Assembly: GCF_011045215.1 (NCBI RefSeq)
Contig: NZ_CP049201.1
Direction: 5' to 3' (one strand)
DNA from: Escherichia coli
Lineage (GTDB): Bacteria > Pseudomonadota > Gammaproteobacteria > Enterobacterales > Enterobacteriaceae
Length of the DNA: 64,000 bases
This document shows, piece after piece, positions 6,241-29,048 of this stretch; position 1 is the stretch's first letter, and each line of letters opens with the position of its first letter. The position numbers and the translations under genes are program-made. The notes under the pieces are model-generated. The model did not search any database. It saw only the letters and a list, made by a program, of their open reading frames with translations, and was not told the origin of the DNA.

Positions 6241-6426
<186 letters not shown>

Positions 6427-15210: not shown

Positions 15211-15309
15211 GCCTGATGCGCTACGCTTATCAGGCCTACGCGTCCCCTGCAATATTTTGAATTTGCACGATTTTGTAGGCCGGATAAGGCGCTCGTGCCG
15301 CATCCGGCA
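15211..15309. repeat. REP elements (two palindromic units) between aspC and ycbL
   Basis: gcctgatgcgctacgcttatcaggcctac and gtaggccggataaggcgctcgtgccgcatccggca. Confidence 0.8.
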
Positions 15310-24048: not shown

Positions 24049-25351
24049 GCGCCTGTACCTTGGCTCCGTAATCATTAATCGGCTGCCATTTCGCTGGCAG
24101 TCCGGTGAAATCTGCTTGCGCTACGCCAAGACGTACCGCCTGATCAATAACAATGCGCGCAACGTCAAAGTGACGTGCACGCGGATACTGTGACAGATAT
24201 TCGCGTACCACCAGACCAAGATCCAGCGGCACTTGTCTGGTTTTGTACACAGCAAGTTGTTCTTCGATGATCGCCGCCAGCTGTTCGCGGATCTCGTTAA
24301 ACTCTTCGTATTCCAAATCTGGCGGAAGTTCCCCAGTCACTTCTTCATCGCGCAGTGCCATCTCTTCGTCACGCATATCCAGCAGACGATCGGCATTGGC
24401 ATAAGTTAGCGCCCACGGCTCATCAAAATAGGTTTGTACCGACTGACGTAACCGCTGAGCAAAGACGCGGTTTTTATCCATATCGATCGCGGTACGAATA
24501 AATTTATGTACGTGGCGGTCGTAGCCAATCCACAAATCGATGGATTGCTGGCCCCAACTGATAATACGGTCGAGTTTGCTCTGCAGATCGAACACCAGAC
24601 GATCGACGAAATGCAGATCGTCATGGGTCATCGTCGCATCCTGAATGCGCAACAGATTAGCCTGCAATTTGTCGCCTGCCGCTTCCAGCGTATCCTGCAA
24701 TTCACGCAGCGTTCCGGAAGTTTCCGAAAGCAACAATTCACAGCTGGAAATCGCCGCCCGCCAGTCTTTGTTCAACAACTGGGCGATATCGTCCTTCACC
24801 TGCTGCTGCTGTTCGTCCATCAGACGTTGCGTCAGGTCGATACTGTCGAAAATTTCTGCTACCGAATATTTCAGTGGCGCATAAACATTACGGTGCCAGT
24901 GAAATTCATCACCGCCCTCTTCGGCGGCATCTGCTGCGCGTTTGAGCTCACCCGCCACAATCGACAACTGCATAGAGAGGCGCAGCGTAGAAAACTCGCG
25001 CTGACGGATGTAATAGTCAGTAATGCCGATGCCGAGCGGCGTCAGACGGTAAATTGCGTTCCCTTCTGCCTGCTCGCTGGTAAAGCGGTTCAGCAGACGT
25101 TGACGCACCATGTCGTTGATCGCGTTATTGGCGCGCACGCCGATGGTTTCGCTGGTTTGCTCAAACGCATCACTCACATGGCGGAATGCATCCACCAGCT
25201 CGCCTTCACTCATCTCACCATCCAGACGCTCGCCGTTCAGCGTGGCAACCGCCAGCAGAAAAGAGAGTCGGTCTACCGGCAGCGAAATGGAGAAGTCATT
25301 TTTTCTGGCCCAGGCAACCAGTTCGGGGACTGTCTGGGAAAATTCACTCAT
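24029..25351 (-). CDS. mukF: Chromosome partition protein MukF (kleisin), 440 aa
   Basis: ORF track 440 aa; operon context. Confidence 0.95.
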
Positions 25352-26133
25352 ACTTTATCCTTGCTCTGCGGTTTGCGAGCGGTGACATGAATATAACGCC
25401 CCAGGGTAATATACGGTTCATGACGGCAATAACGCGTTTCTAATTCAAGTAATGCTTCATAGCAGTCGCGCTGCTGGTGCTTCTCGCGCAGATAATCATG
25501 AAACACGCGAACGCCTGTCTTACCCATAATTTGCCAACCAGCTTCTTCCAGCCACAGATAAACCTGCGCCGGGTCGCGTGGATAATCTGGCGAAAGCGTC
25601 CGTTTTTTCTTTTTCGGCATTCCCGCCTGCACGTAATCAAAATTCCCGGCGACCATGTTATGCATCAACAAACCATGCGCATTGTAGAACATTAACGACA
25701 ACACGCCGCCTGGACGCAACACTGACCACAGGGTCTGCAATACGCTGCGGGGATCAGCCACCCACTCGAGCACCGCATGGAACAATATCAGATCAACGGG
25801 CGTTTCCAAATGCGAAGCAACATCCTGAGCGGCGCAATGTATAAATTGCATGTTGTCGCTCACACCTTTTGCTTCTGCCGCCTGTTTTGCGCGGTCGATC
25901 ATCTGCGCAGAAAGATCGCATAAAATGACCTGATGCCCGCGCTCGGCCATTTTGATTGCGGTCTGCCCTTCTCCACCGCCCGCATCCAGCACACGCAGTT
26001 TTTGCGGACCCATTTCCGCCAGCACGCGATCGAGATCCTGCCACAGAATAGCCTGTCGAAGCTGCCCTTTGGTGGTGCCGTAAATGTTACGGGAAAACTT
26101 TTCCGCAATATCATCAAAATTGCGATCCTGCAT
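25348..26133 (-). CDS. cmoM: SAM-dependent methyltransferase SmtA/CmoM, ~261 aa
   Basis: ORF track frame 25348..26145; motif VLDAGGGEG (SAM-binding); 4-bp overlap with mukF start. Confidence 0.9.
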
Positions 26134-26268
26134 TGCTTTCTCCACCGGTTGGCTAAGACGTTTTCTGATAAAGACGCTATTTTGTCACAGCCACGGCGAG
26201 AATGAACCCGTCTGGTGTAATATCGCTGGCGATCCCTTGCTATATGGTTAAAAAAGGAACCAGAAAGG

Positions 26269-27048
26269 ATGCTTTTTACACTGAAAAAAGTGATTGGCAA
26301 TATGTTGCTACCACTTCCGCTGATGTTGTTAATTATTGGCGCTGGCCTGGCGCTGCTGTGGTTTAGCCGTTTTCAAAAAACCGGGAAGATTTTTATTAGC
26401 ATTGGGTGGCTGGCACTCTTGTTATTGAGTTTGCAACCGGTAGCCGACCGCCTGCTGCGTCCCATCGAAAGCACCTATCCGACATGGAATAATTCGCAAA
26501 AAGTGGACTATATCGTGGTGCTCGGAGGTGGTTATACCTGGAACCCGCAGTGGGCACCGAGCTCTAATTTAATCAATAACAGTCTGCCACGCCTGAATGA
26601 GGGTATCCGTTTATGGCGCGAAAATCCGGGTTCAAAACTGATCTTCACGGGAGGCGTAGCAATAACCAATACGGTGAGTACAGCGGAAGTAGGTGCCAGA
26701 GTTGCGCAATCGCTGGGCGTGCCGCGCGAGCAAATTATCACCCTGGATTTGCCAAAAGATACCGAAGAAGAAGCTGCGGCAGTGAAACAGGCGATTGGTG
26801 ACGCCCCTTTCCTGCTGGTGACCTCCGCATCACATCTGCCGCGGGCGATGATCTTTTTTCAGCAGGAAGGGTTAAATCCGCTACCAGCCCCGGCGAATCA
26901 GTTGGCCATCGACTCGCCGCTTAACCCGTGGGAACGGGCAATCCCTTCTCCGGTCTGGTTGATGCATAGCGATCGTGTTGGCTATGAAACGCTTGGCCGC
27001 ATCTGGCAGTGGCTGAAAGGTCCGTCAGGCGAGCCACGGCAAGAGTGA
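26269..27048 (+). CDS. elyC: Envelope biogenesis factor ElyC (YcbC, DUF218), 259 aa
   Basis: ORF track 259 aa; N-terminal TM segments. Confidence 0.88.
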   Translation: MLFTLKKVIGNMLLPLPLMLLIIGAGLALLWFSRFQKTGKIFISIGWLALLLLSLQPVADRLLRPIESTYPTWNNSQKVDYIVVLGGGYTWNPQWAPSSNLINNSLPRLNEGIRLWRENPGSKLIFTGGVAITNTVSTAEVGARVAQSLGVPREQIITLDLPKDTEEEAAAVKQAIGDAPFLLVTSASHLPRAMIFFQQEGLNPLPAPANQLAIDSPLNPWERAIPSPVWLMHSDRVGYETLGRIWQWLKGPSGEPRQE

Positions 27049-27918
27049 TTTTGATGCCAGATCGAAGTTGCGCCGACTAAATCGTCCGGTATTAACCAGT
27101 TGCGCAACTTCATCCCATAACACATACAACCAACGCCGCCAGATGAACGACTCCGCCACTGGCGCGCGTTGCAGGTAACTCCAGAGCAAATCTTCCGCCA
27201 GAGAATTATCCATTAGTCGGAACAGTTCGTATTCCCGCGGTGCCCAAAGCATTAGTCCCGGCCCGACCATCGCCAGTAACTGATCGCTGCGCGAATCTTT
27301 CAGCATGCTGCGTAAACAGAAGTTACCGTGAATCAACACACAATTGTCGTTAAAGCCTTCAAATAATGCCGGGAGACATTCGCGAGTGCGAAACAGGATC
27401 CGCTTATCCTGCATCGTCAGACCGGTGTTATTGAACTGATTGAGCGTGGTCCATAGCACTTCAACATGTTGCCGGTACCATGAGGGCCAGAAATTTTCCT
27501 GAGTATTGTCGACCGCGCCGACGCAACCGCGACTGTCCTGACGGTGCCAGGCCAGTAAGGCTTCAACGATTTGGTCTTTGAGCTGTTCCCAGCGTTCTGG
27601 TGTTCGGGCTGGTGCCTCCACCGAAACACCACGCATCCGCTCCAGTAGCAGGACATCAGGGCCGGGGTGTTCTTCATGCGTCATCACACCATAAATAGTC
27701 GGCATACGGACAGTCCCACTTCTTGCCAGCATGGTGGTTTTCCATGCCAGTTGTCGGGCTTTTCCGGGCGTACTAAAGCTTCTTGCCATTAACGGCATTG
27801 GGTTTCCCTGGCTGTCATACAAAGCCCACAACGCCGTATCCGCTTTTTCATTGACGCACTCAATACGACTGAGTTTTTCGCCCAGTAAATGGCTTAATTC
27901 GGCACGCAGCTGTTCCAT
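27025..27918 (-). CDS. ycbJ: Putative phosphotransferase/kinase-like protein YcbJ, 297 aa
   Basis: ORF track 297 aa; aminoglycoside-phosphotransferase-like composition; length matches recalled YcbJ. Confidence 0.8.
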   Translation of the reverse strand: MEQLRAELSHLLGEKLSRIECVNEKADTALWALYDSQGNPMPLMARSFSTPGKARQLAWKTTMLARSGTVRMPTIYGVMTHEEHPGPDVLLLERMRGVSVEAPARTPERWEQLKDQIVEALLAWHRQDSRGCVGAVDNTQENFWPSWYRQHVEVLWTTLNQFNNTGLTMQDKRILFRTRECLPALFEGFNDNCVLIHGNFCLRSMLKDSRSDQLLAMVGPGLMLWAPREYELFRLMDNSLAEDLLWSYLQRAPVAESFIWRRWLYVLWDEVAQLVNTGRFSRRNFDLASKSLLPWLA

Positions 27919-28071
27919 TCAGATTACCCTCATAAAAGCTACTGCTTTCATAATGAGCGCCAATATAAAAGATGTCACCTGAATGAGATCAATTGTTGAA
28001 AAGAAAAATTGAGGAAAATCGTAACGGTACGACACTCCTCCCAAAATTGGCTGAAGTGTCGTGAAGTGAAA

Positions 28072-28997
<926 letters not shown>

Positions 28998-29048
28998 AGT
29001 TCCTCCAGATGGATCGGGTTATGAATGCATAAATCTTATCATAATCAT

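Follow-up and report, generated by a model that had tools for sequence, protein, structure and literature searches.

Conservation, origin and transcript ends of the 24-bp convergent coding overlap between elyC and ycbJ in Escherichia coli

The elyC/ycbJ locus

The DNA analyzed is a stretch of 64,000 nucleotides of an Escherichia coli genome (NCBI RefSeq assembly GCF_011045215.1, contig NZ_CP049201.1), hereafter called the window. From left to right the region of interest carries mukF, cmoM, elyC, ycbJ, kdsB, ycaR and ycaQ, all on the minus strand except elyC. Being alone on the plus strand, elyC is convergent with ycbJ. ElyC is a factor of envelope biogenesis located in the inner membrane and carries a DUF218 domain (residues 80-231), and YcbJ is a putative phosphotransferase of the YcbJ family with an APH-type domain. 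The features of the junction are as follows:

26269..27048, plus strand: elyC (ycbC) coding sequence, from the ORF list and RefSeq; 259 amino acids, TGA stop at 27046-27048
27918..27025, minus strand: ycbJ coding sequence, from the ORF list and RefSeq; 297 amino acids, TGA stop at 27025-27027 (TCA on the plus strand)
27025..27048, both strands: elyC/ycbJ overlap, 24 bp, codons in register (phase 123:321)
27046..27048, plus strand: elyC stop TGA, which doubles as the YcbJ Ser291 codon TCA
27025..27027, minus strand: ycbJ stop TGA, which doubles as the ElyC Ser253 codon TCA and is invariant in every overlapping locus

On the plus strand the shared segment reads TCA GGC GAG CCA CGG CAA GAG TGA and encodes ElyC S253-E259 (S-G-E-P-R-Q-E) and the stop; on the minus strand it reads TCA CTC TTG CCG TGG CTC GCC TGA and encodes YcbJ S291-A297 (S-L-L-P-W-L-A) and the stop. 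Each TGA stop is therefore a TCA serine codon for the partner gene. A first-pass annotation of the window had reported a 24-bp overlap between the 3' ends of elyC (plus) and ycbJ (minus), and the sequence, the ORF list and the RefSeq annotation all agree with it. The same annotation considered that an earlier genuine stop in one of the genes would overturn the observation; neither frame stops earlier, and both annotated stops hold. It had also concluded that each transcript must extend into the other gene. This is correct: there is no intergenic DNA, so that any mRNA with a complete elyC or ycbJ frame runs at least 24 nt into the partner.

The RefSeq/PGAP annotation of MG1655 (ycbJ 971752-972645, elyC 972622-973401) gives an identical 24-bp overlap, and so does the RefSeq annotation of a K-12 derivative. 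The elyC/ycbJ locus was found in 5425 of 5426 complete E. coli genomes.

Persistence of the overlap across Enterobacteriaceae

The overlap is a matter of gene geometry rather than a statistical pattern; chance is not the issue, and the relevant measure is its persistence across genomes. A search with ElyC gave 80 species-level loci of Enterobacteriaceae, and we determined the position of both stops in all of them. ElyC and YcbJ are full-length and 73-97% identical across these loci, and the overlap is retained in 77 of the 80. The loci are distributed as follows:

24-bp overlap: 69 loci, about 25 genera
21-bp overlap: 8 loci, in Buttiauxella, Cedecea, Yokenella, Entomohabitans, one Enterobacter sp. 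and S. enterica subsp. arizonae
Genes separated by 58-117 bp: 3 loci, in Citrobacter youngae ATCC 29220, C. werkmanii and Citrobacter sp. wls619

In the 21-bp class the elyC stop comes one codon sooner, as TAA or TAG, the mirror of a TTA or CTA leucine codon of YcbJ. As expected for a convergent overlapping pair, both genes are real, each stop lies inside the coding sequence of the partner and the arrangement is kept in related genomes.

Separation by REP elements in Citrobacter

All three separated Citrobacter loci carry a REP-type palindromic element exactly at the elyC/ycbJ junction. ElyC ends there with ...WLKG[A/R/S]EH before its stop, YcbJ is unaltered and both genes are intact. The 18-mer GCGTCTTATCAGGCCTAC of this element is found elsewhere in the window in two exact copies and one copy with 2 mismatches, compared to 0.01 expected by chance. 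The positions of the inserts and of the window copies are:

L010:3766-3858: REP-type insert, Citrobacter locus
L016:3766-3823: REP-type insert, Citrobacter locus
L024:3766-3882: REP-type insert, Citrobacter locus
6282-6299, window: copy of the REP 18-mer
6390-6407, window: copy of the REP 18-mer
15275-15292, window: copy of the REP 18-mer

Insertion of the REP element has re-separated two genes that previously overlapped.

Distant relatives and the origin of the overlap

An ordinary homologue search with YcbJ was uninformative for outgroups: it gave at least 120 matches, and those listed were all close relatives with at least 86% identity. An exhaustive search of 1.84 billion representative proteins yielded a few clusters of full-length YcbJ, whose contigs we compared. 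Three of them are described below:

L085, Plesiomonas-type: YcbJ 42% identical to that of E. coli; ycbJ and a DUF218 gene convergent with a 30-bp spacer; YcbJ ends with ...LIPWLE and ElyC with ...LTLKGKH
L086: YcbJ 33% identical; genes convergent with a 107-bp spacer; YcbJ ends with ...LTPWLAY and ElyC with an unrelated tail of 13 residues
L083: YcbJ 44% identical; elyC absent at this position; YcbJ ends with ...LKPWLES

The PWL motif of YcbJ is kept in these homologues of 33-44% identity. The distant ElyC homologues end 2 or 13 residues past the position equivalent to LKG, with unrelated sequence. As the genes of the distant relatives are convergent and do not overlap, we consider that convergence and the PWL tail of YcbJ are old and that the overlap arose later, when the spacer was lost.

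The 30-bp spacer of the Plesiomonas-type locus is filled by a hairpin of 11-12 bp (GAATAACCGC...GCGGTTATTC, L085:2030-2066) which takes in the ycbJ stop codon. Its folding energy is -21 kcal/mol (z = -3.5 and -2.8 for the two strands), with no U-tract on either side; this hairpin may represent an ancestral stop for both directions, or a stabiliser. The comparative series offers a textbook example of an overlap that is born, frozen and undone, from the hairpin spacer of the Plesiomonas type to the 21/24-bp overlap and on to re-separation by REP in Citrobacter. In the third relative (L083:3001-4787, 61% G+C), lpxK-ycaR-kdsB-ycbJ directly adjoins cmoM-mukFEB and elyC is missing between them, so elyC is not a constant member of the neighbourhood.

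Constraint on the shared codons

Conservation of the YcbJ tail (K-S-L-L-P-W-L-A) is strong: its P and W never vary, and L-L-P-W-L as a whole hardly does. The conserved core of ElyC ends with W-Q-W-L-K-G, and the residues beyond it mirror the YcbJ tail. The fixed residues of the ElyC tail (S, G, P, G) face the stop, Ala, Trp and Pro of YcbJ, and its variable residues switch among E, K and Q exactly at synonymous changes of YcbJ leucines (CTC, CTT, CTG). The last 7 residues of ElyC, which some lineages do without, thus appear to be a variable and dispensable by-product of overprinting rather than a functional module.

We also compared codon use in conserved YcbJ columns over 79 loci; these loci are phylogenetically related, so that the counts serve as internal comparisons and not as probabilities. 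Ser291 is TCA in 70 of the 72 loci with a serine at this position, and the exceptions, TCG and TCT, belong to two of the three Citrobacter loci where this site is no longer read by elyC. Ala297 is GCC in 62 of 62 loci (27028-27036 holds codons 295-297). Pro294 (27037-27039) is CCC, a rare codon in E. coli, in 72 of 79. Conserved alanine and proline columns elsewhere in YcbJ show a codon entropy of 0.9-2 bits, and the three leucine codons of the overlap (292, 293 and 296) are free to vary, with 1.1-1.9 bits. The frozen synonymous sites at Ala297 and Pro294 suggest mild selection on ElyC tail residues (Gly), on the RNA or on something else; given these sites, to call the ElyC tail a pure by-product may be an overstatement.

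Without its stop, ElyC would gain a median of 34 codons in the species compared. Since any indel would also harm the YcbJ tail, the arrangement stays frozen. Purifying selection on the YcbJ tail and on the ElyC stop, perhaps with mild selection on the ElyC tail, appears sufficient to account for the conservation of the overlap.

Published 3' ends and Rho-dependent termination

In the Term-seq data of Adams et al. 2021 (PMC7815308), which cover three growth conditions, a 3' end is listed for neither ycbJ nor elyC. The 3' end of kdsB lies at MG1655 position 971644, i.e. position 28026 of the window (PMC7815308). A terminator-like hairpin covers the kdsB stop codon (28074-28097, minus strand), and the 3' end follows 46 nt downstream. 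Hairpin and 3' end together indicate that most kdsB transcripts do not reach ycbJ, which is probably expressed from a weak promoter of its own or by read-through.

On the ycbJ strand the same authors report a Rho termination region at MG1655 972120 (plus), equivalent to 27550 on the minus strand of the window, which they class as "internal ycbJ" (PMC7815308). Its Rho score is 5.47 (p = 5e-12), with upstream/downstream reads of 135/18 in untreated cells and 192/140 with bicyclomycin, counted in 800-nt windows. These 800-nt windows take in the highly expressed kdsB, so the score means that Rho curbs transcription of the ycbJ strand and does not give the position at which ycbJ mRNA ends. The peak is inside ycbJ, 525 nt ahead of its stop. 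It could reflect Rho-dependent polarity in a poorly translated ycbJ, or simply the lower expression of ycbJ compared to kdsB.

On the elyC strand, the RNA past the stop (27049..27350, plus strand) is untranslated, C-rich and G-poor, with a C/G ratio of 1.5-2.08 over positions +1 to +130. The peak of 2.08, at +27 to +104, is beyond the 97.5th percentile of the window. A C-rich, G-poor untranslated stretch of about 80 nt after the stop, as used to recognize Rho terminators, is thus present on this strand. RNA past the ycbJ stop is less C-rich (C/G 1.44, in the first 78 nt only). By its composition, the segment downstream of the elyC stop could plausibly serve for Rho loading.

Antisense and double-stranded RNA

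The ycbJ-elyC pair is among the 165 convergent excludons of E. coli catalogued with ExcludonFinder (NAR 2025, PMC12288877) in at least 50% of 58 RNA-seq samples. The criterion is an overlap of the transcript boundaries of neighbouring genes, and an expressed pair with overlapping coding sequences qualifies for it almost automatically, so the listing shows overlap of transcripts and not regulation. Read counts of both strands are available for the wild type, in RPM (Huang et al. 2020, Table S1c):

ycbJ: sense 36.4, antisense 5.4
elyC (ycbC): sense 20.5, antisense 7.1
kdsB: sense 106, antisense 1.7
smtA (cmoM): sense 91.6, antisense 2.4

The antisense/sense ratio is 0.15 for ycbJ and 0.35 for elyC, compared to about 0.02 for the neighbouring genes (Huang et al. 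2020). Antisense reads are thus raised over both genes, which indicates that convergent read-through is real. The first-pass annotation had proposed strand-specific RNA-seq as a check on overlapping transcripts; the published data, i.e. the excludon listing and the raised antisense signal, agree with its expectation. In the same study, dsRNA captured with p19 amounts to 8-19 RPM for ycbJ and elyC, which is ordinary, as 13.5% of genes exceed 100 RPM (Huang et al. 2020). The sense RNA of the two genes does not rise in rnc-14 and rnc-38 mutants (Huang et al. 2020). The dsRNA and mutant values are single measurements on genes of low expression.

These data bear on the possibility that the pair is a functional convergent excludon, in which polymerase collision and/or cleavage of the duplex by RNase III would make expression mutually exclusive between ElyC, with its role in the use of cell-wall and envelope precursors, and YcbJ, a putative kinase downstream of kdsB. 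Such repression of one gene by transcription of the other would then be what maintains the overlap. Membership in the catalogue speaks for it, together with antisense/sense ratios 5-20 times those of the neighbours, conservation of the overlap over about 25 genera and the lack of a terminator that would block read-through. However, the conservation is explained without regulation by the constraint on the YcbJ tail and the ElyC stop, and the two genes are naturally uncoupled by REP in three Citrobacter and by spacers in distant relatives. The dsRNA level is no hot spot, sense RNA does not rise in either rnc mutant, Rho limits transcription of the ycbJ strand, and reciprocal expression of elyC and ycbJ is unreported in the literature. 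We consider a functional excludon rather unlikely. The antisense interference that the first-pass annotation had allowed for stays a possibility which the data do not support: dsRNA is low, sense RNA shows no rise in the RNase III mutants, and the genes of the uncoupled Citrobacter loci are intact.

Terminators and RNA structure

The first-pass annotation had further stated that there is no room for a terminator on either strand. This holds for intergenic space, of which there is none; it does not hold in general, since the coding sequence of the partner may itself harbour a terminator. Of the genes in the 58 convergent overlaps of E. coli, 20% have a predicted intrinsic terminator according to Lillo & Krakauer (PMC2174442). 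We therefore have to consider a cryptic terminator in the coding sequence as what sets the 3' ends, with two candidates:

27002..27044 (arms 27002-27014/27032-27044): weak inverted repeat across the overlap, 13-nt arms, 85% complementary, 17-nt loop
27064..27111, plus strand: perfect 10-bp inverted repeat GAAGTTGCGC / GCGCAACTTC with a 28-nt loop, in the 3' part of ycbJ and 16-63 nt downstream of the elyC stop

The first repeat is followed on the plus strand by GUGAUUUUG, and a TTTT run comes after the elyC stop. The repeat nevertheless folds no better than shuffled sequences (z = -1.29 on the plus strand and +0.23 on the minus strand). In a consensus fold of 78 loci only a 5-bp stem, TGGCT/AGCCA, is conserved (-4.8 kcal/mol, 0 compensatory pairs), and this core is due to the Trp-Leu codons of both proteins. 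With U-tract and covariation absent, the repeat is ruled out as a terminator or as a conserved RNA structure. The segment 27049-27130, which holds the second repeat, folds at -21.4 kcal/mol (z = -3.85 against shuffled sequences). However, this hairpin lacks a U-tract and occurs in E. coli only: it is missing in other genera and in one divergent locus labelled E. coli (L002). We therefore rejected it as a general feature; in E. coli it may stabilise the elyC 3' end or cause a pause.

A consensus scan for promoters and terminators over 25300-29000 found nothing downstream of the elyC or ycbJ stop, with counts similar to those of shuffled sequence, and an Rfam search of the same interval at E <= 1 gave zero matches. 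A bidirectional intrinsic terminator, i.e. a G+C-rich hairpin with a U-tract on both strands, was sought near and across the gene ends and none was found. Taken with the absence of both genes from the listed Term-seq 3' ends (PMC7815308), these results make a cryptic terminator very unlikely, in spite of the inverted repeats and of the share of genes in E. coli convergent overlaps with terminators predicted in the partner.

Interpretation

We favour as the probable explanation an ordinary overlap that arose from a lost spacer, is conserved through constraint on the proteins, and has transcripts that terminate diffusely within the partner gene, probably through Rho. The ancestor of the core Enterobacteriaceae would have lost the short spacer of an already convergent ycbJ/elyC pair. 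YcbJ has kept its ancient C-terminus, ...LLPWLA followed by the stop. The ElyC frame continues past ...WQWLKG across the antisense of the last seven codons of YcbJ, to end where the TCA codon of YcbJ Ser291 reads TGA on the opposite strand. Every full-length mRNA of either gene would enter the partner and, as an intrinsic terminator is absent, the 3' ends would most likely be diffuse and lie inside it. The likely agent would be Rho acting on untranslated, C-rich RNA past each stop, perhaps aided by collisions of polymerases. Some antisense RNA and a little dsRNA would be side-effects which these two weakly expressed genes tolerate, and not a regulatory switch.

A bolder proposal is that the frozen overlap is a cis-antisense coupling, in which read-through from ycaR-kdsB into ycbJ tunes ElyC and Rho sets the strength. 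If this were true, the frozen GCC, CCC and TCA sites would be due to selection acting on the RNA duplex in addition to the proteins, and the coupling would join Kdo activation for LPS (ycaR-kdsB) to ElyC, a factor in the use of undecaprenyl-phosphate and peptidoglycan precursors. We give this proposal a slim chance. That one stop or one gene is an artefact of annotation has practically no chance: the only point in its favour is the general one, made in the title of a paper, that long overlaps are sometimes mispredictions, and we reject it on comparative evidence, i.e. unambiguous stops with no earlier in-frame stop, full-length domain-bearing proteins 73-97% identical over 80 species, and a YcbJ end that is its best-conserved tail motif.

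The pair can be compared with several known systems. One is the class of convergent prokaryotic overlaps of phase 123:321, a phase that accounts for 33% of convergent overlaps of at least 5 nt (Lillo & Krakauer 2007, PMC2174442). The likeness extends to shared 3' ends, short length, conservation among species, a stop within the coding sequence of the partner and an origin by loss of a spacer or stop, after which the frame extends as far as the following in-frame stop. There are no essential differences; 24 bp is longer than the very common 4-bp class and within the usual range.

Rho-dependent termination of untranslated or antisense RNA (PMC7815308) is similar in the bicyclomycin-sensitive read-through of the ycbJ strand, the C-rich RNA past the elyC stop and the absence of sharp 3' ends. 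It differs in that the published peak is within ycbJ, in windows that include kdsB, and in that the elyC strand is judged by composition.

Bidirectional termination at convergent pairs (Wang, Watters, Ju & Liu, bioRxiv 10.1101/2022.10.23.513370) also concerns convergent genes without a spacer, for which head-on collisions are a plausible contributor. However, the mechanism requires that a stem-loop located between the two gene ends position the collisions; elyC/ycbJ has no conserved one, whereas the Plesiomonas-type relative has it.

With excludons (PMC12288877) the pair shares convergent genes and transcripts overlapping at the 3' end, and it is itself catalogued as one. Their defining outcome is mutually exclusive expression through interference or RNase III, whereas elyC/ycbJ is known for transcript overlap only. 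In excludons it is long 3' UTRs or UTR terminators that overlap; in elyC/ycbJ it is the coding sequences, dsRNA is low and sense RNA does not rise in rnc mutants.

Prior knowledge and practical consequences

The elyC/ycbJ overlap is already known: it is annotated, stated in print and catalogued as a transcriptional overlap. A 2025 preprint on a phenotypic screen mentions that ycbJ overlaps elyC in the opposite orientation and that deletion of ycbJ inactivates elyC. Our literature search on ycbJ together with ycbC returned only an unrelated Bacillus paper. The scientific weight of the overlap is small, as it is one among several dozen convergent coding overlaps of E. coli.

Its practical weight comes from a caveat: a clean deletion of elyC or ycbJ alone is impossible. 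The design of the Keio collection reportedly retains just the last 21 nt of a deleted gene. With 21 nt retained against an overlap of 24 nt, each deletion should remove the stop codon of the partner. As deletion of ycbJ affects elyC, envelope phenotypes assigned to ycbJ need clean alleles.

The flanking genes show overlaps of another kind. ATGA-type 4-bp overlaps on the same strand are present between cmoM and mukF (25348-25351) and between ycaR and kdsB (28815-28818), which suggests translational coupling in both pairs. The mechanical ORF of cmoM begins at a GTG at 26145 (265 amino acids), and its RefSeq gene is 786 nt long.
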